Source of the DNA: Candidatus Hodarchaeota archaeon
GTDB lineage: Archaea > Asgardarchaeota > Lokiarchaeia > Sigyniarchaeales > SOKP01
Assembly: GCA_048887225.1 (NCBI GenBank)
Contig: JBHLJY010000007.1
Coordinates: 62,021 to 126,020, forward strand
Direction: 5' to 3'
DNA length: 64,000 bases
Below, one piece after another: positions 51,668-64,000 of the stretch (its first letter is position 1; each line of letters starts with the position of its first letter). The translations under genes were made by a program, and so were the position numbers. The notes below the pieces were generated by a model, which was given only the letters and a program-made list of their open reading frames with translations, did not search any database and was not told the DNA's origin.

Positions 51668-53005
51668 TTACAAAGGCATTAATGCTTTACTACCATGTTT
51701 TTTAGCGGCTTCAAGGAGAGCCATTGCCTCTTGAATTGGAATTGACTCTGGAACTAAATCAAATACGTTCATACCCGATAATTTTAGCGTAGCATTAACA
51801 GTTTCAGCTAGATTATTGCAATCCCCAGTAAAAAAAATCTTTTTTTTACCAAATTCTTTTTTCATTTTTTCACCAATTTCATCGATAGCGCAATAACCTG
51901 CCACGAGACCTTTTTTATATCCTTCAGCTTTTAATTGATCTACAAGATCTTCGTCAAATCCTTTCCCCATTATAAGAAACCACCCACCTTTAAATTTTTC
52001 GGGATAATCATAAGCAAGCAACTGTAAAATAGTTAATGGATTGTTCTGACAACCTTCCCTACATATTAGTTCCTTCCCTTTTACGATTTTAACGTCTTCT
52101 GGAAATTCTTGTAATAGATCCCAATCATATTTTTCTTTGAACTCTTCCAAATCTTTCCCTATTACTTTGATTTTACTTAAATCTCCTTCACCTAATCCTC
52201 GCTCGTGGGCTATTTTCAAATGAGGAATTTCGTCTATAGTTAAACCAAAAGCTCTTCCACCAATGACATCAACAGCTAACGTGTCTCTTCCTCCGATTAA
52301 TATGTTAAATTGTTTAACGAGTCGATCTTCCCAGGCAGTCGGAGGATAATGCCCGTGAGTGGTCCCTTCAATTCCATCGATAATTGTTATATCCGGTTTA
52401 ATGTATTCATACACATCAATCAATTTTGAATGCAAATTATAGTTGTGATCTTTACCCCGGTCTTCATGTTGGGGATATCCCCATTGATTCTTTATGCCAA
52501 GTGTAACTCCTGCCATTGAATGAGTTTTAAGTTTTGGCAAGTTGATATAAGTTATCGAATCTCTATTTTCCATAATTTTAACAATTGTCATAGGTAATCT
52601 AAAAGTCTTTAAATTGTATCCTTTAGGATCGTCTTTTGAAGATGGTTTTCCCTTGAACTCGAAGGTTTTAGTATCTTCCTCGTCTAAATATATGATTTTT
52701 GCTCCTGCCTTTTTACAAACTTCCTTGTAACCTGTAATTGCGAAGACAATCCGCGTCATGTTTGATTGAGTGCTATTTTCCATAACATAAACTTTTGCAC
52801 CAAGATTATTTAGGTATTTTATAACAGCCTCTAAAACTTCTGGAGAGGTATAAGCATGTTTCTTAAAATCTATACCATTTACTTTAATGTAGACTTCTTT
52901 TGAGCTTTTCAGGATGGGTTCTCCAGATTTCTCAATATTGGAAAACATTTGACCTACAGCAGGTTTAATCCCTTGTTTGGTATCAACTAAATATACTTCT
53001 GTCAT
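51668..53005 (-). CDS. DUF362 family (Fe-S-associated) protein
   Basis: IKVN...T.PEV, NLPKLKTH...VTLGIKN.WG, IIDGI, D.LAVD; GGTGA RBS before ATG at 53005. Confidence 0.85.
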   Translation of the reverse strand: MTEVYLVDTKQGIKPAVGQMFSNIEKSGEPILKSSKEVYIKVNGIDFKKHAYTSPEVLEAVIKYLNNLGAKVYVMENSTQSNMTRIVFAITGYKEVCKKAGAKIIYLDEEDTKTFEFKGKPSSKDDPKGYNLKTFRLPMTIVKIMENRDSITYINLPKLKTHSMAGVTLGIKNQWGYPQHEDRGKDHNYNLHSKLIDVYEYIKPDITIIDGIEGTTHGHYPPTAWEDRLVKQFNILIGGRDTLAVDVIGGRAFGLTIDEIPHLKIAHERGLGEGDLSKIKVIGKDLEEFKEKYDWDLLQEFPEDVKIVKGKELICREGCQNNPLTILQLLAYDYPEKFKGGWFLIMGKGFDEDLVDQLKAEGYKKGLVAGYCAIDEIGEKMKKEFGKKKIFFTGDCNNLAETVNATLKLSGMNVFDLVPESIPIQEAMALLEAAKKHGSKALMPL

Positions 53006-53125
53006 TATTATAGTCACCTTAATTTCATCTAATGCAATATAATAAAAAATATTATCAATAATTCAAGGAACCTTTTTTATTTTATTAGAATTAGAATTAA
53101 ATTAAAGAAATAAAATGTGTAAATT

Positions 53126-53896
53126 ATGCCATTTTTCGAATATAATGGAAAAAAGATATTTTATCAATTTAGTGAAAAAGAAAAAGAGAGAACTATTATT
53201 TTTATTCACGGTTCAGGAGAAAACTCACACATATGGAAAAAGCAACTTAATGACCTAAATCTTAATTATAACCTAATAGCGATTGATTTGCCTTCTCACG
53301 CTGAATCAGGTGAGTTTTTAAAATTATCCCTCGATTTATATGTAGATGTCGTTAAAAAGCTTGTTGATTTTTTAAATCTTAATAAAATTATTTTATGCGG
53401 GCATTCGTTAGGAGGAGCAATAGCCTTAGAATATTTTTTTAAGAACCCTAAGGAGGTTTTTGCTTTAATCTTATGCGGAACAGGCGCTAGATTAAGGGTA
53501 AGTCCTATGATCCTTAATACTTTGAAAAATAATTACCAAGAATTTTTAGATTCCATATCTATGGGCTTTTATCGAAAAACACCAGGGGACATCATAAATG
53601 ATTTTAAAAATGAATTATCCAAAACAAAACCAGAAGTTGTTTATCGCGACTTTAAAATTTGTGATAATTTTGATGTTATGGATAAATTAAGTTCGATTAA
53701 TGTCCCTTGTTTATTAGTTTGTGGAAATAAAGATATATTAACACCAATAAAATACTCACAATATTTTAAAGATAAAATAAAAAATTCAAAATTAGTTATC
53801 ATTAAAAATGCTGGACATATGGTTATGATTGAGAAGCCTAACGAGTTAAATCAGGCAATACAAGAATTTATTGAAAATTATTTGGATAAGAATTAA
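53126..53896 (+). CDS. Alpha/beta hydrolase
   Basis: FIHGSG, GHSLGG nucleophile elbow, G..D, AGH. Confidence 0.92.
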   Translation: MPFFEYNGKKIFYQFSEKEKERTIIFIHGSGENSHIWKKQLNDLNLNYNLIAIDLPSHAESGEFLKLSLDLYVDVVKKLVDFLNLNKIILCGHSLGGAIALEYFFKNPKEVFALILCGTGARLRVSPMILNTLKNNYQEFLDSISMGFYRKTPGDIINDFKNELSKTKPEVVYRDFKICDNFDVMDKLSSINVPCLLVCGNKDILTPIKYSQYFKDKIKNSKLVIIKNAGHMVMIEKPNELNQAIQEFIENYLDKN

Positions 53897-53935
53897 ATAT
53901 CTTAATTTTTTATTTCAGAATATATTTTATTTAAA
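53728..53935 (+). repeat. 208-bp direct repeat, copy 1 (3' end of the hydrolase gene plus downstream T-rich tract)
   Basis: Matches 55182-55389 with 4 mismatches. Confidence 0.95.
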
Positions 53936-54036
53936 TTTTTTATTATCTGCAATTACACTATGATTTCACTTTTTTTAAGACCCAATTATCAATTATGATC
54001 AAACTGCCTCCCGCATCGTTCCTTCCAATTGGCTTT

Positions 54037-54996
54037 TCACCAGCTTGGCGGAGTGCGTCCACAGATAAGGCTCCCAGGGATTCCCGCCCAGAGTGGTGGC
54101 CCCCATCCACGTCGCCGATGCACCCGCTCAGCCACGGCTAGGGCAATCTTCAGGTGCCCTTGCTCGTTCGGGTGGCAGTTTAGCCCCTCAAAATCCTCTT
54201 TAGGATCGAGTAGGTGGTAGATGTCGATGACCGATACCCCTCGAGGCCATGTATGGTTTATGAGTGAGAGTGTGTAGGATAGCAGCCTGGAATGGACTGC
54301 TGGCCAGCCCTTCCCGGGCCTAGGGATGGGCGTCAGTATTAGAATCCGCCGAGCACCATCTCCTCGTAGTCGGTCTATGAGCCGCGTCATATTCTTGATA
54401 TAATCTTCAGTTTTTATCGGTCTAGGCTCAAAATAGCCCGTAGCGTCATTTCCGCCCAGCTCAACCACCACGGTGCGGCAAGGCAGGTGTTCCTCGGCCA
54501 GCAATTCATAGGCGCCACCGAAGGGGGGAGGCCAGAATCCGCTCGGGAATGTGCTTGATGGGTCGGGGATGGGCGGATTTACCCAGTCGCGGGATGTCGT
54601 ACCGCCGTAGCCCGCGTTAATTACCTCGAAGTGGCTCCCGAGCAGGCATTGGAGAGCGATAACATAGGGAATGCCACCGCCGGAAACCATACCTGCAGTG
54701 ACGGAATCGCCTATGCAGAGGATACGAGTGGGATTCCCCCTCCAAGCCTTCACATCGCCTCCCGCATCAGATTCGCTGTACACGTCAGGCAGTGCTTTTC
54801 GATGCAGCAGCTGTTTAGCAATGTATTCATCTCGTGAGCTTAAAGGATTTTTATTGACAGTATCTTCTTTAGTCTGTGTGGTTGCTACTGTATCTGGTTC
54901 AGTTTGAATATTAGTGTTCAAGGCATTATTGCTTGAAAAAAAGGCGCCTAAAAACGTTACAGATATGAATAAAACCAGTATTGATTTTTTTTTCAT
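54037..54996 (-). CDS. Secreted SGNH/GDSL hydrolase; AT-rich leader fused to a GC-rich catalytic body
   Basis: Blocks IGDSVT, NAGYGG, LGGND, GLNCHPNEQGH; signal peptide MKKKSILVLF... Confidence 0.88.
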   Translation of the reverse strand: MKKKSILVLFISVTFLGAFFSSNNALNTNIQTEPDTVATTQTKEDTVNKNPLSSRDEYIAKQLLHRKALPDVYSESDAGGDVKAWRGNPTRILCIGDSVTAGMVSGGGIPYVIALQCLLGSHFEVINAGYGGTTSRDWVNPPIPDPSSTFPSGFWPPPFGGAYELLAEEHLPCRTVVVELGGNDATGYFEPRPIKTEDYIKNMTRLIDRLRGDGARRILILTPIPRPGKGWPAVHSRLLSYTLSLINHTWPRGVSVIDIYHLLDPKEDFEGLNCHPNEQGHLKIALAVAERVHRRRGWGPPLWAGIPGSLICGRTPPSW

Positions 54997-55050
54997 TTTA
55001 AATTTCACTAAAAATTTTTTTTATTAAGTAAAAATGATCGCTTTTCAACT

Positions 55051-55078
55051 TTTTAATCTAAAAAATTCTAGATTAAAA
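55051..55078. promoter_or_regulatory. Perfect 10-8-10 inverted repeat upstream of the SGNH gene
   Basis: TTTTAATCTA-AAAAATTC-TAGATTAAAA. Confidence 0.5.
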
Positions 55079-55181
55079 TATAATTTAAAATATGTTGAGA
55101 TTACTATTTAAAAGGATCTTGTAAATTTTTGAAGTAATAAATTTTCCAAATTTAATTTTAATGAGATTTTTTAACCAATTT

Positions 55182-55389
55182 TAAAGATATATTAACACCA
55201 ATAAAATACTCGCAATATTTTAAAGATAAAATAAAAAATTCAAAATTAGTTATCATTAAAAATGCTGGACATATGGTTATGATTGAGAAGCCTAACGAGT
55301 TAAATCAGGCAATACAAGAATTTATTGAAATTTATTTGGATAAGAATTAAAAATCTTAATTTTTTCTTTCAGAATATATTTTATTTAAA
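55182..55389 (+). repeat. 208-bp direct repeat, copy 2 (orphan hydrolase 3' fragment)
   Basis: Encodes only DILTP...EIYLDKN* with no upstream gene body. Confidence 0.95.
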
Positions 55390-55390
55390 G

Positions 55391-55434
55391 TATCTATTTA
55401 GTTCAAGATATAAGATAGAAATAAAAAAAAAAAA
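55391..55434. repeat. Cassette-boundary repeat A (core plus A-tract only)
   Basis: TATCTATTTAGTTCAAGATATAAGA at 55391-55415, then TAGAAAT and poly-A. Confidence 0.9.
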
Positions 55435-55451
55435 TTAAAATTAAAATTTAT

Positions 55452-55823
55452 TCAGAGCTTCTTATAGTTGATTAGAAATTCAATAAAAAGAAGTGCAAAA
55501 ATTAAATCTCCAGTACCTATCATTACATAGCTAATATCAAGAATGCCTAATAAAAAATATACCATATAATATAGAAATACAAGAATCTTTCCAATAACAC
55601 CTAATACTATTAAAGCATGGTTATTGTCGATATTTAAACCAACAACGCCATAACCAATGCCAAAGAGAATGACTGCCCATAGAAATGCCTGATAGTACAA
55701 TAACCCTAATATTGAGAGACCAGGACTAATGAAAAAAGACATTATGAGAATAGGGACAGCAAGAGCTAAATTCCAAATAGACCCAATGATTAACATATAT
55801 TTATAATATGCTTTTTTTTCCAT
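55452..55823 (-). CDS. Small four-TM membrane protein (cassette 1)
   Basis: GAGG RBS before ATG 55823; hydrophobic helices with GK and D...LF motifs. Confidence 0.75.
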   Translation of the reverse strand: MEKKAYYKYMLIIGSIWNLALAVPILIMSFFISPGLSILGLLYYQAFLWAVILFGIGYGVVGLNIDNNHALIVLGVIGKILVFLYYMVYFLLGILDISYVMIGTGDLIFALLFIEFLINYKKL

Positions 55824-55837
55824 ATTAAAATCCTCAT

Positions 55838-55985
55838 TTAGATAATTCACCCATAAATTTATGGATTAAGTAAAAAATTGAGAAATAAGTATTTAAAGAT
55901 TTAACTTTTGTAATGGGCGATTTAGATACAAACTCAAGAAAGTATCTATTTAATTCAAGATATAAGATAGAAATATAAAAAAAAA
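55838..55985. repeat. Cassette-boundary repeat B (full module)
   Basis: TTCACCC leader, TATTTAAA at 55890-55897, GGCGATTTAGA, core at 55943-55967 (1 mismatch), A-tract. Confidence 0.92.
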
Positions 55986-56008
55986 TTGAATTAAGATTAT
56001 TTTTATCT

Positions 56009-56686
56009 CTATTCTAATTTCATGCCAATATACCCTTGGGTTATTTCGCAAATTAAAAATATATAGAACATAATTTTTTGCATTGTTGCTTGGATCATCA
56101 AGCCTTCAGATGTACTTATATCAATGCCAGCAAATAGTAGTATTACATATACACCAAAAACAATTGCATAGACTAATAAAATATAAGCATATTTATTTGG
56201 AATTTGTTTATTTAGAAATTCAGCAATTAAATACGCAATTATAGCAAAAAGTCCAGATATACCAGAGATAAGAACAAGCATCAAGTGTTCATAAGAATAG
56301 AGATCCCAAGGCGTAAGAGCAACTGCGATCAAAAGGATCCCTGTAAAAATTCCTATGATTGAACCGATGAGAGAGAGAGCCTTTTCTTTCGTGGTTTCCT
56401 TAAAAAATTTAGGGAAGGCTAGCAAAAAAGAAATTAGTGATGTAGCCAAAATACAGAATGTTATAGTGAAAATCACATATGAAATTGTATTAGACTTGCC
56501 CGAATGTGCCCTAGTTCGCCCTAAATCACTGAAAAAATTATGCCAGAACGAATAACCTGAAGCATTAGGATTAATTATTGTTCCTCCTGCATAGAAAAAC
56601 ATTGCAATGGTAGTAAGAATGATGTATTGGACACAACCAATCATGAGAAAAATAAAAGCGAATTCTCTCCAATTTTTAATATTCAT
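56009..56686 (-). CDS. DUF998-like membrane protein (cassette 2)
   Basis: GYSF..NF.SDLG motif, six TM segments, conserved H and QK. Confidence 0.7.
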   Translation of the reverse strand: MNIKNWREFAFIFLMIGCVQYIILTTIAMFFYAGGTIINPNASGYSFWHNFFSDLGRTRAHSGKSNTISYVIFTITFCILATSLISFLLAFPKFFKETTKEKALSLIGSIIGIFTGILLIAVALTPWDLYSYEHLMLVLISGISGLFAIIAYLIAEFLNKQIPNKYAYILLVYAIVFGVYVILLFAGIDISTSEGLMIQATMQKIMFYIFLICEITQGYIGMKLE

Positions 56687-56736
56687 TCAAATTATCATCT
56701 CTTAATTTTTTTATTTATTTTTTAATTGGATTCAAA

Positions 56737-56886
56737 TTAGATATTTCACACATAGATTTATAGATAATTTAAAATATTGACAAATAAGTATTTAAAGATT
56801 TAACTTCTTTGTAATAGGCGATTTAGAAAGAAACTCAAGAAATTATCTATTTAGTTCAAGATATAAGATAGAAATGAAAAAAAAAA
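56737..56886. repeat. Cassette-boundary repeat C (full module)
   Basis: TTCACAC leader, TATTTAAA at 56789-56796, core at 56844-56868, A-tract. Confidence 0.92.
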
Positions 56887-56924
56887 TTTGATAAGGATTC
56901 TTATCAAAATGTAAGTATAATTCT

Positions 56925-57722
56925 TTACAATTTTTTCACTTTTTCGGCGATTGCTTTCTTAATTAGTTCATATGCGGAAGGGTGGTGGAAGGGTATTGGG
57001 CCCGTTCTCATCTTTTTTTCATCAATAAACAAAGCATCTGCCATACCCCATTCTAAGAATATATCTCTATCAGATGTATTAATTTCGCGAAATATCACCA
57101 TATCTCCAAACTCTGAGGCCGCTTTTTTTGCAATTTCAAATATTCTGTTTTGAGCTGGACACCATCCATTAATTAATGTGGTAACAACCACCTTTCCAGG
57201 TATAGTTTCAGGTGTTTTTTTTTGGTTTATCCATTTTGGGGGGATTGCGTCATCATAAAATGGCTTCCAAAGGAGTGCTTGAATCTCTTGTTTATCTACT
57301 ATGGAATATCCATGTTTTTCAAACCAAGATCCCATCATCCAGAAGTTTGTAGTTAAACCCCATGCCACCATACCTTTAGCTCCTTTACTTTTCACATCAG
57401 CTTCCGCAGCCTCAAGTAAAGCAGTGCCTAAACCTTTCCCTGTAAAATTTCCTCTTCCCTCTTGATAATTATGAATCCAAATACAAGGTATAAAATATAA
57501 GTCATTTCCTTCCGCAACGGAATATTCTATAGGAATATATTGTATCATACCTCCAATTTCTCCATTGTCATCAACAGCAAGTTTTACTCCGAGACCTTTA
57601 TTCTTCATGTTGTTATACCAAATTTCTTTATGGTTTCCTGCCTCTTTCATCATTTCTGACCAATCTTCAAGGCATACGAAATATAATTTCTTAAGTTCAT
57701 CCGTTAAATCGATAACTTTCAT
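56925..57722 (-). CDS. GNAT acetyltransferase with C-terminal YoaP/thioredoxin-like domain (cassette 3)
   Basis: GMIQYIP.E, I.CIW, GKGLG..LL acetyl-CoA motif, WF.K.GY, GWCP. Confidence 0.85.
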   Translation of the reverse strand: MKVIDLTDELKKLYFVCLEDWSEMMKEAGNHKEIWYNNMKNKGLGVKLAVDDNGEIGGMIQYIPIEYSVAEGNDLYFIPCIWIHNYQEGRGNFTGKGLGTALLEAAEADVKSKGAKGMVAWGLTTNFWMMGSWFEKHGYSIVDKQEIQALLWKPFYDDAIPPKWINQKKTPETIPGKVVVTTLINGWCPAQNRIFEIAKKAASEFGDMVIFREINTSDRDIFLEWGMADALFIDEKKMRTGPIPFHHPSAYELIKKAIAEKVKKL

Positions 57723-57758
57723 TATTTATTATAAAATTTTTTGAATTTCTATTTTTTA

Positions 57759-57888
57759 TTAGATCTTTCACCCATAAATTTGGATTAAGTAAAAAATTGA
57801 CAAAAAAGTATTTAAATGTTTAACATTTTTGTAATAGGCGATTTAGAAACAAAATCAAGAAATTATCTATTTAGTTCAAGATATAAGA
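57759..57888. repeat. Cassette-boundary repeat D (leader, promoter and core; no A-tract)
   Basis: TTCACCC leader, TATTTAAA at 57809-57816, core at 57864-57888; homology ends at ...TATAAGA. Confidence 0.92.
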
Positions 57889-58016
57889 CTCTATTTCTTG
57901 TGATCCCTCTCATAAGAACATCATTCCATTTAGAAGAAACTTACTCAGAAATTTGTCGGCGTTGTATGATTTTAATAATTGCTGGTTTTTTATACCAAAA
58001 TTGAAAAAATATAGTA

Positions 58017-58235
58017 ATGACAGCAATAGAGGAAAATATCGATATAAGAGATATTGATTCTGAATTCTTTAGTGCTTGGAGTATTTACTCTGATAAGGAA
58101 GAAGAACTGTTTAAAAGACCTACAAAAACCAAACATTATCTCAAAAGGCTTGATCTAATGCTCAAAAATCGTTTTATCTTGGCAAAACTTTTGTCGAAAA
58201 AAAATTTTAATATGAGAAAAATGTATCCATTATGA
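58017..58235 (+). other. Small ORF or gene remnant
   Basis: 72-aa ORF in frame with upstream ORF 57816-58004 across a single TGA; no motif recognised. Confidence 0.3.
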
Positions 58236-58273
58236 ATTAACAAACTTGAATAGGTCTTTCATATTATATAAAG

Positions 58274-59029
58274 ATGAGAACTATGGATTATTGGAAATAT
58301 TACGATGTTACGCACAAGGAGCATCTCGTGTGCAATCCTGTGAGCATCGAAAAATTAAACGAGCTTATCACCCTCTTGGAGTTAAAATCATGTTCAAAAG
58401 TGTTAGAAATCGCCACCGGTAAAGGAGAGTTTCTGATTCTGCTCGTCGAAAAGTATAATGTATCCGCAATAGGCGTTGATATCTCGCCCTACCATCTCGG
58501 TGATGCTAAAAGAAAAGCGAAAGAGCGTGTCCCGAATGCCGATTTAACACTAATTGAAATGGACGGTGCCAATTATAAGCCCGATACACCAGAGAGCTTT
58601 GACCTCACATGTTGTTTAGGTGCCAGTTGGATTTATAACGGACATGAGGGTACACTTAAGTATTTGATGAGCCAAACAAAGCGCAACGGACTCGTCGTTG
58701 TGGGAGAACCATTTTGGATCAGCAAGCCACCAAAAGAGTATTTCGATCTCTCGGAAATAAAATATGAGATGTTCAGCAATCACGCTGGGAACGTGCAAAT
58801 TGGAGAGAATCTCGGTCTAAAACTGCTCTACACTTTCGTGAGCACCCATGATGAGTGGGATAGATATCTCGGGCTCCAGTGGTATGCAATGGACAAGTAT
58901 GCTCAAGCACATCTGGAAGATCCCGACCTTCCCGAGTTTTTAATCAAATTAAATAAAGAGAAAAACCTATATCTGAAGTGGGAGCGGGAGGCAATTGGGT
59001 GGGCTATTTATGTGTTTAGAAAGACGTAA
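58274..59029 (+). CDS. Class I SAM-dependent methyltransferase (YjhP-like), GC-richer than the host
   Basis: VLEIATGKG, GVDIS, C.GASWI, VGEPFW. Confidence 0.88.
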   Translation: MRTMDYWKYYDVTHKEHLVCNPVSIEKLNELITLLELKSCSKVLEIATGKGEFLILLVEKYNVSAIGVDISPYHLGDAKRKAKERVPNADLTLIEMDGANYKPDTPESFDLTCCLGASWIYNGHEGTLKYLMSQTKRNGLVVVGEPFWISKPPKEYFDLSEIKYEMFSNHAGNVQIGENLGLKLLYTFVSTHDEWDRYLGLQWYAMDKYAQAHLEDPDLPEFLIKLNKEKNLYLKWEREAIGWAIYVFRKT

Positions 59030-59047
59030 ATATAAAAAGAAAAAAAA

Positions 59048-59458
59048 ATTACTCGCTTTGGCGATACTTACGGTTATGAATTCATATCACTCCGATGCCC
59101 TGAATGTGGGGGTTCTCTCGATAATATGGACAAGACACAAGAATTCGTAAAATGTCAATACTGTGGAGATATGTTAGAAAAAAAAGCATTTAATGTTCAA
59201 AATAGAAAAGAAGCTGTAAAAAAGTATAGAAAATTAGAAACAATAAAAACTATAAAAAGAACTAATTCTCCCGCTTTTTCTACATTTGAATATTTATACA
59301 CAGAGGTATTTGGATTTCAAAGTCGTAAAGAATATGAAGCAAAATACAAGGATTATAATAACGGATCTTTTTTCTTTGAAAGAGCTCTTAAAGGATATTT
59401 CGAGAAATTATTCAATGGAGTATCATTAGAAGATATAATCGCATTATACAAATCTTAG
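59048..59458 (+). CDS. Zn-ribbon protein; the ribbon begins upstream of the ATG (ATT start or 5'-truncated gene)
   Basis: In-frame CPECGG at 59096-59113 pairs with CQYCG after ATG 59126; upstream stop at 59033. Confidence 0.55.
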   Translation: MTRFGDTYGYEFISLRCPECGGSLDNMDKTQEFVKCQYCGDMLEKKAFNVQNRKEAVKKYRKLETIKTIKRTNSPAFSTFEYLYTEVFGFQSRKEYEAKYKDYNNGSFFFERALKGYFEKLFNGVSLEDIIALYKS

Positions 59459-59538
59459 ATGTGAGTTAATGCATTAAGTTTTATAGTTATAAAGAGTTAA
59501 TTTGATTAATCCTAATATAAAATAACAAATGAAATTTT

Positions 59539-60336
59539 TTGCGCAATTACACTTACGGTCCATTCCAATCCCGAAGATTAAAACTCTCGCTTGGAGTCGA
59601 TGTTTTATCAAAAATTAAGATATGTACATATAATTGCGTATATTGCGAATTAGGAATTACTAGTAAAGATCAATTGATTTCTCCAGAACATAGAATAAGT
59701 AAAAAACCTACAATCAATTTTCGAAAAGAACTGTTTTCTGTATTAAAATACGTACCTCATTTAAATTCAATTACGTTTGGGTATAATGGTGAGCCCACCC
59801 TTAATGAAAATCTGTTAGATTTTCTTAAAATAGCCTCAAATGTAAGAGAACAAATGAAATGGACCAATGAAAAACCGAAACTGACCTTATTTACAAATTC
59901 CAGCACTCTATATTCACAGGAAATCAGTGATAGGGTTAAGCATTTTGAATTAGTTTTAGCGAAATTAGATGTTGCGACTGAGGAAGATTTTAAAAGAACA
60001 AATTGTCCACATAAAGACACTCCTACCCTCAAGACCATAATCAATTCTATTATAGATTTAAGAAAAGAAATGCCTATAGATCATAAATTAGCATTACAAT
60101 GTCTTATTTATAATTCTTATAGAAAAGATTTCATACCAAATAATAATCCAGAAAATATTACTAAATTAGCTTATGCGATTGAAAAAATTAAACCAGATTT
60201 TGTACAAATATATTCCGTCGCAAGGATTCCAGCTCAATATTATGTCTTTGCGATAGATGAAGATAGAAAAAAAGAGATCATGGAAAAATTTAAGAAAATA
60301 ATAAATGATGATAATGTTGAAATTAACTACTTTTAA
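59539..60336 (+). CDS. Radical SAM protein (COG0731-like)
   Basis: YGP..SRRL..SLG.D, CTYNCVYC.LG, GEPTL, TNSS, KLD. Confidence 0.88.
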   Translation: MRNYTYGPFQSRRLKLSLGVDVLSKIKICTYNCVYCELGITSKDQLISPEHRISKKPTINFRKELFSVLKYVPHLNSITFGYNGEPTLNENLLDFLKIASNVREQMKWTNEKPKLTLFTNSSTLYSQEISDRVKHFELVLAKLDVATEEDFKRTNCPHKDTPTLKTIINSIIDLRKEMPIDHKLALQCLIYNSYRKDFIPNNNPENITKLAYAIEKIKPDFVQIYSVARIPAQYYVFAIDEDRKKEIMEKFKKIINDDNVEINYF

Positions 60337-63376: not shown

Positions 63377-63399
63377 TAGATATATCTCTATTATATCTA
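63377..63399. promoter_or_regulatory. 8-7-8 inverted repeat just upstream of the recombinase TATA box (att/dif-like site or operator)
   Basis: TAGATATA-TCTCTAT-TATATCTA; TTTAAATA at 63404-63411. Confidence 0.45.
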
Positions 63400-63433: not shown

Positions 63434-64000
63434 ATGAGCTATAATGATGCAATTGATAAATATATTAATGAGGAATTAACACATTTAAAAAACAATAGTA
63501 AAACTGTTAGAAAGTCATATTTGAAAAACTTCTTTTTGAATATTGATTATAAAACAGATTTCAATGAACAAGATGTTATTAATTTTTTTAATTCTGATTA
63601 TTTCATGTCAAAATCGGTTCCAACTAAAAATTTTTTCAAAATAACTCTAAAATCTTTTACTAAATGGAAAGGAATTAAGATTTCAAGTAATTTATTTAAG
63701 AAATGTAAAGAAATTAATAGAGTTATGAAAAAATCCGATTTATTAACTAAAGGAGAAATTAAATTAATTTTAAAAAATCTAAACAGGCCTATTGAAAAAG
63801 CAATTTTTATGTTATTACTTGAATCAAGATGCAGAAAGGCGGAATTAATTGAACTCAAGATCGGAGATATTGCATTTTATGATTCTTATGCTATGGTTTA
63901 TATTAGAAAATCAAAAACATCTCAGAGGAATATTCCTATTGTAGAATCAATTCCTTATTTAATGCGATATTTAGAAGATCATCCATTTAGAGAAGAACCA
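63434..64000 (+). CDS. Tyrosine recombinase/integrase, runs off the window end (absent from the ORF track)
   Basis: Manual translation is open for the whole span: MSYNDAIDKYI...LLTKGEI...AIFMLLLESRCRKAELIELKIGDI...KSKTSQRNIP...YLEDHP (Box I Arg and catalytic Lys). Confidence 0.88.
   Translation, partial: MSYNDAIDKYINEELTHLKNNSKTVRKSYLKNFFLNIDYKTDFNEQDVINFFNSDYFMSKSVPTKNFFKITLKSFTKWKGIKISSNLFKKCKEINRVMKKSDLLTKGEIKLILKNLNRPIEKAIFMLLLESRCRKAELIELKIGDIAFYDSYAMVYIRKSKTSQRNIPIVESIPYLMRYLEDHPFREEP

Follow-up and report, generated by a model that had tools for sequence, protein, structure and literature searches.

Repeated 28-bp sites flanking single genes in an Asgard archaeon: a candidate cassette array

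Four copies of a short, partly palindromic sequence mark a cluster of three unrelated genes in the genome of a Candidatus Hodarchaeota archaeon of the Lokiarchaeia. The window analysed here is a stretch of 64,000 nucleotides (nt), corresponding to positions 62021-126020 of contig C7 (GenBank JBHLJY010000007.1, 30% GC, a value that would suit a Loki-type Asgard archaeon) of this genome, which is called G000 and is made of 49 contigs totalling 3.27 Mb. The feature is real and does not result from chance. The array is viewed, with moderate confidence, as an array of self-expressing cassettes bounded by a simple recombinase site, integron-like in function and not an integron. An even chance is given to the wider view that the array is part of an undescribed Asgard gene-capture platform, in which a 28-bp simple site would be used in trans by a chromosomal tyrosine recombinase, single genes furnished with a standard promoter and terminator would enter several chromosomal arrays, and these genes would be exchanged within the population.

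The array and its 28-bp site

Exact copies of the 25-mer TATCTATTTAGTTCAAGATATAAGA are found at positions 55391, 56844 and 57864 of the window, and a fourth copy, at 55943, differs by one base (G to A). The copies all lie on the plus strand, at spacings of 552, 901 and 1020 nt, and none of 100 dinucleotide-preserving shuffles contains a match to this core, versus the four copies in the window. Each of the three core-to-core intervals hosts one open reading frame (ORF) on the minus strand, and the encoded proteins share no mutual similarity (BLASTP, E≤1e-3). The original prediction, made from the letters of the window, had reported four cores at these positions and one unrelated minus-strand gene per interval; both points are confirmed, the latter by the ORF list and BLASTP. 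The gene identities it proposed stand in part. About four hydrophobic segments were found in the first protein and a GNAT domain was identified by Pfam in the third; the DUF998 assignment of the second is weak and below cut-off, and the YoaP domain attributed to the third was not detected by Pfam.

Internal modules share about 165 nt, arranged on the minus strand in the order A block, core, P block. The A block measures about 30 nt, and includes a tract of 8–12 T residues followed by CATTTCTA. The P block measures about 110 nt, and features ATTTCTTGA..TCTAAATCGCC, an A-rich stretch, the box TTTAAATA and, about 25 nt further on, a CCATAAATTTATGG GTGAAATATCTAA leader. Each cassette is thus provided with a promoter signature, the conserved TTTAAATA box with its A-rich upstream element, and with a T8–12 tract after the gene. 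P and A blocks are the putative promoter and terminator, respectively, termination at the A block being suggested by the oligo-T rule for archaeal RNA polymerase. As each unit carries its own P block and oligo-T block, every captured gene would be separately transcribed. Modules are incomplete at the array ends. Copy 1 includes A block and core only, and is joined to a duplicated hydrolase 3' end; copy 4 includes core and P block only, and is preceded by a different block of 71 nt, called C (57890-57960). The order of the modules (T-tract, core, promoter side, leader) and the half-modules at the ends, terminator side only at the leftmost and promoter side only at the rightmost, had both been anticipated, and are borne out by the alignments. 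Positions 56855-57795 of the window are matched at 100% identity by L160, an independent Logan contig (941 nt, run SRR30758827), which ends inside the core and the promoter block.

The symmetry centre of the site falls in TGA|ACT, and over 41 sites symmetry is highest in the 11-6-11 register, for a total of 28 bp. In the T1 consensus, ATCTTATATCT-TGAACT-AAATAGATAAT, partly inverted arms of 11 bp flank the asymmetric 6-bp spacer TGAACT. T2 sites feature the same arms and the spacer TAGAAC (ATCTTATATCT-TAGAAC-AGATATATGAT); about 17 copies are known in the genome, none in the window. Arm symmetry involves 7.1 of 11 positions in T1 sites, up to 21 of 22 in T2 sites.

Genome-wide junctions and strain variation

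The T1 core is repeated 37–43 times in the G000 genome, versus no copies of a reversed control. Searches with the T1 and T2 28-mers, allowing up to 6 mismatches, retrieved 60 matches, about 58 of which are credible and about 41 of the T1 type, versus 1 match to the reversed control. Sites are mostly clustered in co-oriented arrays, located at C2:90.7-96.4 kb, C2:103-112.4 kb, C4:110.9-113.2 kb, C6:94.7-105.6 kb, C28:16.8-26.9 kb, C10:7.4-16.1 kb and in the window. A few sites are solo, and several contigs end in a site (C1:202, C6:54, C26:52, C28:26865, C30:21449). The original prediction dealt with a single array; at least six arrays and the solo sites replace it, and the core bounds about twenty other single genes in the genome. 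At C6:94713-94810 a T1 site with 18 nt of the P block lies head-to-head with an inverted half site and block B, an arrangement suggestive of an inversion, or of nesting, that involved oppositely oriented sites.

The site is restricted in its distribution. Sixty other genomes of the same family host 0–3 core copies each, versus 37 in G000. An exact 20-mer, searched in one genome for each of about 186,000 species, was found in six contigs, two from genus-mates and four from unrelated bacteria; the bacterial matches are presumably due to chance. The records of the two genus-mates bear conflicting labels, Thorarchaeota and Promethearchaeota. Two scans of IMG/VR with the site cores yielded chance matches only, with unrelated flanks, and a viral or plasmid vector was rejected on these grounds. 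A conserved single-copy ancestral site was sought by synteny and not found, the few sites of sister species residing also in variable DNA.

Sequences next to the sites have been sorted, in the orientation of transcription, into left classes A, B, C and unique (u), and right classes P, Q and u. Class B is a 40-nt block with a T-tract of its own, ending in CTTAGAGA; class Q starts with TCAATCTAAG. The left-right combinations observed at T1 sites are A-P (9), A-Q (2), A-u (3), B-P (5), B-Q (3), B-u (5), C-P (3), u-P (7), u-Q (2) and u-u (2). Flank classes are therefore joined in nearly all combinations, and 17 of the 41 T1 sites (about 40%) lack any promoter block. Alignments tell the same story: among 37 credible local alignments obtained by nhmmer with an A-core-P model, in which the core spans positions 33-57, 16 start at 32-37 and 8 end at 58-61. 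At sites with a unique flank, the outer arm on the unique side is degenerate, and inner arm bases and spacer (TATCT TGAACT AAATA) are kept, the pattern expected of hybrid sites made by recombination with secondary sites. B-T1-Q sequences form an extended imperfect palindrome, which folds better than shuffles (z = -2.7). Together, the data support the view that the core is a genome-wide junction joining different flanks.

The chromosomal spot occupied by the array varies among relatives. An alpha/beta-hydrolase gene is followed within about 10–20 nt by a radical S-adenosylmethionine (SAM) gene in the sister species G009 and G006, and in one allele (C49) of the sister species G002. The same genes are separated in G000 by 5.6 kb (53900-59547), in the other G002 allele (C20) by a different gene of 155 amino acids (aa), and in G001 by about 8 kb of other genes. 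Because the two genes are adjacent in sister species and separated by other genes in other relatives, the array is, on this comparison, a lineage-specific insertion at a variable spot. The comparison of the hydrolase-to-radical-SAM locus across relatives had been proposed as a check, and the same three genes in fixed order in relatives had been named as a result contrary to gene capture. Content differs, the array is missing in G009, G006 and G002:C49, and the three genes are absent from the orthologous locus.

Two side observations concern the same locus. The radical SAM gene has a TTG start (59539-59560) and encodes a protein beginning with MRNYTYGPF in G000 and G002:C20, versus an ATG start and MPREYTYGPF in relatives without the insertion (L102, L103, L106); the first codons of the gene were thus exchanged when the insertion took place. 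Both versions of the hydrolase/radical SAM locus (C20 and C49; L104 and L106), one with the 155-aa GNAT-like gene, coexist in the metagenome-assembled genome (MAG) of G002, the closest sister species, as a result of either strain heterogeneity in the bin or duplication.

Contigs from marine sediments (four JGI samples) carry the same modules with cassettes in other orders; L117 and L122 derive from Ga0209427, L114 from Ga0114925. L122 is 98% identical to C6:96112-96451; homology stops about 7 nt before the core, and a cassette absent from G000 follows. L117 is 98% identical to C23:58-407; homology stops exactly at the core edge, where an array begins. The 80-nt flank of L117 is joined to a site also on C2 of G000 (99% identical), next to a different cassette. 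L114 carries a 90% identical copy of the cassette at C6:102797-103138, as a single unit set between T1 and T2-like sites in an unrelated context. Multi-site arrays are found in independent assemblies, with three sites in L117 and two each in L122 and L123. An exact look-up of the GNAT protein for strain variants retrieved one match only, the 941-nt contig L160, identical to the window; the like look-up of the hydrolase protein yielded no record. The comparisons support the conclusion that the same flanks are joined to other cassettes in related strains, and that homology is lost at the core edge or a few bases from it.

The gene-capture idea of the original prediction is supported in part, by the lineage-specific insertion, by the junction role of the core and by the strain-variable cassettes. 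The mechanism, with strand exchange at the spacer, circular intermediates and a tyrosine recombinase as the enzyme, is inferred. The recombinase, its gene lying at another place in the genome, would exchange strands in or next to the spacer, and units could then move out of, into and between the arrays, of which there are at least six, as well as between strains. The unit would be a single gene, served by a portable P block of about 110 nt located 3' of a site, and by a portable oligo-T block of about 30 nt located 5' of the next site.

Cargo genes, module histories and features of the locus

About 21 genes are driven by a P block genome-wide. They include families encoding a 131-aa membrane protein (5 copies), a 108-aa protein (7–8 copies) and a 130-aa membrane protein (2 copies), plus singletons, among which are an amine-oxidase-type flavoprotein, a SAM methyltransferase and a helix-turn-helix (HTH) protein. 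The three families of small paralogous proteins make about two thirds of the set. Genes for an iron alcohol dehydrogenase and a class IV aminotransferase reside behind truncated P blocks. Paralogous cargo proteins are 24–58% identical, with the exception of one closely related trio (72–85%), and many cargo genes are unrelated; modules are 83–93% identical at the DNA level over 130–165 nt. Cassette 3 adds a further GNAT paralogue, which shares 69% identity with the native C36 protein and 64–66% with the copies of genus-mates. The DUF998-like protein of cassette 2 is at most 45% identical to the products of native genes on C33 and C15, and its best match in genus-mates is 53% identical. By these values the window genes are extra, divergent members of native families.

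Similarity among P blocks follows neither gene nor array. The nearest relative of a P block lies on another contig in 13 of 19 cases, and identity averages 0.78 within and 0.80 between contigs. The P block of cassette 2 is most similar (92%) to one found on C2 before an unrelated gene of the 131-aa family. As nearest-related P blocks often drive unrelated genes, promoter block, gene and terminator block have separate histories; nor do the P blocks of one array group together, which excludes local tandem duplication. Paralogues arisen by tandem duplication had been listed among the findings contrary to gene capture: the genes of the window are unrelated, and elsewhere many cassettes do fall into the three paralogous families.

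The palindrome CCATAAATTTATGG in the leader coincides with the predicted transcription start. Its reading as an RNA hairpin was rejected, since variants break the pairing and compensatory changes are missing. No Rfam family was found at E≤1 in the region 52000-60000 of the window. The interval C1:342075-342719 (L153:2075-2719) encodes a P-driven protein of 214 aa with two HTH domains, a candidate regulator for the palindrome.

Features of the locus are listed in Table 1. Next to the distal end of the array, a plus-strand segment of 217 nt, made by the hydrolase 3' end and 41 nt downstream, occurs twice (53728-53944 and 55182-55398; 97% identity), and the second copy abuts site 1. The two copies bracket an inserted GDSL/SGNH esterase gene, which is a chimera in composition: about 850 nt have a GC content of 58%, the first 200 nt or so, coding for a signal-like N-terminus, are AT-rich and host-like. 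The closest relatives are 50–59% identical, in the catalytic part only, and reside in contigs of 59% GC beside portal, terminase and capsid genes. The esterase domain probably derives from a tailed virus or from the host of that virus. A SAM methyltransferase gene at 58274-59029, inside the 5.6-kb insertion, on the opposite strand and without a site, is probably another acquired gene, its GC content being about 43% versus about 27% in the surroundings.

Table 1. Coordinates of sites, blocks and genes at the array locus (window numbering)
Feature	Position	Strand	Description
Site 1, distal array end	55389..55416	-	28-bp T1 site, ATCTTATATCT-TGAACT-AAATAGATACT; terminator block upstream, hydrolase 3'-end duplicate downstream, no promoter block
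A block, cassette 1	55416..55447	-	T12 tract, then ATTTCTA; putative role in termination
Cassette 1 gene	55452..55850	-	small membrane protein, 123–132 aa depending on start codon; about 4 hydrophobic segments; no Pfam family
P block, cassette 1	55832..55940	-	TATA-like TTTAAATA at 55890-55897, minus strand
Site 2, internal T1	55941..55968	-	one core mismatch; AGATAC right-arm variant common to site 1
A block, cassette 2	55968..55999	-	
Cassette 2 gene	56009..56686	-	225 aa, 5 hydrophobic segments; weak DUF998 match (24.7 bits, cut-off 30)
P block, cassette 2	56726..56841	-	TATA at 56789-56796
Site 3, internal T1	56842..56869	-	exact consensus
A block, cassette 3	56869..56900	-	
Cassette 3 gene	56925..57722	-	265-aa GNAT (Acetyltransf_1) acetyltransferase with C-terminal extension
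P block, cassette 3	57753..57861	-	TATA at 57809-57816
Site 4, proximal array end	57862..57889	-	T1; outermost left-arm base G, specific to flank class C
Block C, non-coding, 71 nt, upstream of first site	57890..57960	-	repeats at C4:110947-111017 and C4:113248-113318, always as C-site-P
GDSL/SGNH esterase gene	54037..55008	-	own AT-rich upstream region (55009-55181); no site, no P block
Hydrolase 3'-end duplicate	55182..55390	+	with 41 nt downstream; 97% identical to 53728-53937; abuts site 1

Candidate enzymes, related systems and rival explanations

Tyrosine recombinases are represented in the genome by three Phage_integrase matches, XerA on C25, a 341-aa integrase on C24 and a fragment at the window end. 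The product of C25:18135-19061 is a genuine XerA, scoring 238.8 bits with NF040815 (recomb_XerA_Arch) versus a cut-off of 220. XerA is the only housekeeping candidate found, and an unlinked integrase may also be considered. Serine recombinases, Y1 HUH transposases and credible TnpB proteins were searched for in the genome, and none was found. The dif site of Thermococcus kodakarensis is TTTTGATATAA TGTACC TTATATGACAA (GATATAA-N6-TTATATG), and the archaeal hallmark is TAA-N6-8-TTA (PMC11840125). Junctions between arms and spacer read TCT-TGAACT-AAA in T1 and TCT-TAGAAC-AGA in T2, and the shared TATATC motif is turned the other way round with respect to the spacer than in this dif. Site geometry suits enzymes of the Xer type; the arm sequence does not suit the dif of T. 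kodakarensis.

When 10 genomes of the genus were compared, the fragment at 63434-64000, the end of the window, was present in G000 and in none of the nine genus-mates, which is suggestive. Full-length homologues (361–371 aa, 49–56% identical) border mobile-element-like blocks of small unknown genes, and housekeeping genes, uvrC included, separate the fragment from the array. It was discarded as array integrase on these grounds, and is treated as the integrase of a separate element. Directly upstream lies a single-copy palindrome, TAGATATA-TCTCTAT-TATATCTA (63377-63399), with arm polarity matching that of T. kodakarensis dif; an att site is one candidate reading, the chromosomal dif carrying an integrated element another. 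With up to 3 mismatches allowed, the palindrome proved not to be conserved among genus-mates.

Integrons provide the closest functional parallel. The attC sites of integrons are imperfect hairpins of about 57–141 nt with R''/L''/L'/R' boxes (RYYYAAC ... GTTRRRY), and cassettes are usually promoterless and read from a common promoter, Pc. The intI gene, encoding a tyrosine recombinase with an IntI-specific insertion, adjoins attI at the array head, and sedentary chromosomal integrons have species-specific attC repeats, as those of the Vibrio VCR type. Like integrons, clusters of attC sites lacking integron-integrases (CALINs) and archaeal integrons (Ghaly et al. 2022, PMC9668308), the arrays described here feature co-oriented, mostly single-gene cassettes between repeated elements of the recombination type; repeats are lineage-specific and far more similar than the cargo, a local integrase may be absent, and the cargo is accessory and varies between strains, in G000 and its relatives as in integrons. 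In contrast to integrons, the site is of the 28-bp duplex type (11-6-11) rather than a 57–141-nt attC hairpin, each cassette appears to carry its own promoter and terminator block rather than relying on Pc, and many dispersed arrays replace a single platform. Neither strand of A-core-P folds better than shuffles (z = +0.43 and +1.13), and the only candidate boxes, CTTGAAC and GTTCAAG, both break the RYYYAAC/GTTRRRY consensus. The NCBIfam integron-integrase models give XerA 106.6 bits (cut-off 265) and 59.8 bits (cut-off 435), and do not match the other two recombinases. An attC/integron reading was rejected on folding and motif, and IntI and promoterless cassettes are missing as well; the earlier statement that the module does not fit attC is upheld by the folding and motif check.

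In Acinetobacter plasmids, XerC/XerD move dif (pdif) modules (PMC6449649, PMC7399989, PMC11705084), which are similar in that accessory genes are bracketed by 28-bp sites of the 11-6-11 type, the recombinase is encoded elsewhere in the genome, and modules are found in different contexts. They differ in that the sites described here are direct (all four in the window, and those within arrays are co-oriented) rather than alternating inverted, are chromosomal, have arms unlike those of a characterised archaeal dif (everted polarity, no TAA-N6-TTA), and delimit modules with standard promoter and terminator blocks. Because orientation, replicon type and arm sequence do not correspond, the array is not a dif module as defined. 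Integrative mobile elements exploiting Xer (IMEX) and archaeal XerA/dif (PMC2958812, PMC5357621, PMC11840125) share with the arrays a simple site with a 6-bp spacer, on which a host tyrosine recombinase could act in trans, and the setting of single cassettes between two non-identical sites (here T1 and T2). In contrast, sites are about 58 rather than one, and units are single genes rather than phages or islands. No description of such arrays was found in the Asgard mobile-element papers, the archaeal integron paper and the archaeal recombinase review that were searched.

Matus-Garcia et al. reportedly described in 2012 putative mobile promoters, highly similar upstream regions before unrelated genes. 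The promoter-leader block of about 110 nt, 83–93% identical before unrelated genes, is of this kind; unlike those regions, it belongs to a module with a recombination-type site and a terminator block, in strain-variable arrays.

Several observations weigh against recombination at the 28-bp site. A recombinase gene was found beside none of the arrays examined, and the nearest one in the window is 5.5 kb off the array, is cut by the contig end, and resembles integrases of mobile elements. T1 and T2 arms have a polarity opposite to that of T. kodakarensis dif and lack TAA-N6-8-TTA, and XerA is for this reason not an obvious fit. Neither a circular junction nor an empty-site allele of the window locus was seen, and a secondary site was not found at the ancestral hydrolase/radical SAM junction. 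P blocks are decoupled from genes, and exchange at the site alone is therefore not the whole story: gene conversion, a second junction at the leader end, or a similar process must also act. Accordingly, the claim of self-expressing cassettes stands as far as each has its own TATA-type and oligo-T blocks, and the promoter-gene-terminator circle originally envisaged is too simple. Finally, flank duplicates, 97–99% identical and lying beside a new gene, mark three array edges: they measure 217 nt in the window, 134 nt on C4 (3' end of an MFS gene; C4:110203-110336 and 111020-111153), and about 80 nt on C2/C23 (C2:94596-94676 and C23:58-140). A second route of gene gain, by duplication of the 3' end of the flanking gene, operates at the array edge, and flank duplication may be the recurring footprint of the addition or creation of units. 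The combination of a flank duplicate and a new gene suggests that DNA of diverged strains was integrated by way of homology.

The chief rival view is homologous recombination between portable modules, and flank duplication is its main support. The 165-nt A-core-P module would be a dispersed intergenic repeat; gene conversion, and Campbell-type integration of DNA from related strains via shared flanks, would build and reshuffle the arrays, the core being kept as a protein-binding or otherwise functional part. We regard this as unlikely, and still as an alternative to be taken seriously. Identity of 83–93% over 130–165 nt is sufficient for the process, genome-wide gene conversion predicts P blocks decoupled from gene and array, the flank duplicates bracket the added gene at three edges, and no dedicated recombinase is linked to the arrays examined. 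However, the 24 alignment ends are not scattered along the module but lie at the core or a few bases from it, 25 T1 sites share the core alone (as in A-u, B-u, u-P, u-Q, B-Q and C-P combinations), a sequence short for such recombination, and 17 of 41 T1 sites are devoid of the promoter block. The geometry of a recombinase site, and the occurrence of two spacer versions between the same arms, also speak for site-specific exchange rather than homology.

That the palindrome is an operator, bound by a dimeric transcription factor ahead of a shared promoter, in arrays generated by old tandem duplications of co-regulated genes, is improbable. The distance of the palindromic site from the conserved TATA box (about 45 nt), the second palindrome CCATAAATTTATGG at the predicted transcription start, the three paralogous families forming about two thirds of P-driven genes, and the HTH protein encoded by one of these would all suit an operator. 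Such a function does not account for the 17 of 41 T1 sites with no promoter block downstream, among them site 1, which faces the 3' end of a convergent gene. Paralogues are mostly 24–58% identical versus 83–93% for the modules, and sister species have almost none of the latter. The three window genes share no similarity and are absent from the locus in relatives, and break-points between strains coincide with the site or lie a few bases off.

Transposition of A-core-P as a unit into the intergenic spaces of pre-existing gene clusters, in the manner of a miniature inverted-repeat transposable element (MITE) working as a mobile promoter, is more improbable still. The module is a short non-coding repeat present in about 40 copies in one lineage, and several contigs end inside it, as would befit a MITE. 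It lacks, however, terminal inverted repeats and target-site duplications, its ends differ (oligo-T block versus leader), and half modules are found at array ends. The intervening genes are absent from the orthologous locus of relatives, so genes and modules arrived together. Searches for two families, Y1 HUH and TnpB, gave no credible match, and homologues of the one integrase found near the window array border mobile-element-like regions rather than cassette arrays.

An assembly artefact, by repeat collapse or chimeric joining in a MAG, is hardly credible: several contigs do break at the repeat, and a 58% GC block is set in a 30% GC contig, but multi-site arrays recur in independent assemblies from other samples (L117, L122, L123), L160 is 100% identical over the GNAT cassette and its two flanks, and the GC-rich block is in frame within an ORF whose 5' end has native composition.

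If the T1 and T2 sequences are true recombination sites, the arrays would represent a second, independent route to the arraying of cassettes, occurring in the archaeal group closest to eukaryotes, and distinct from integrons in that each cassette would carry its own expression signals. The short site and the few candidate enzymes make the idea directly testable in vitro. The question of how cassettes are born would be sharpened, as promoter, gene and terminator blocks have separate histories, and the duplications at array edges may be snapshots of capture. Recombination at these sites would also provide a concrete mechanism for the high turnover of accessory genes and the expansion of paralogues reported for Asgard genomes.

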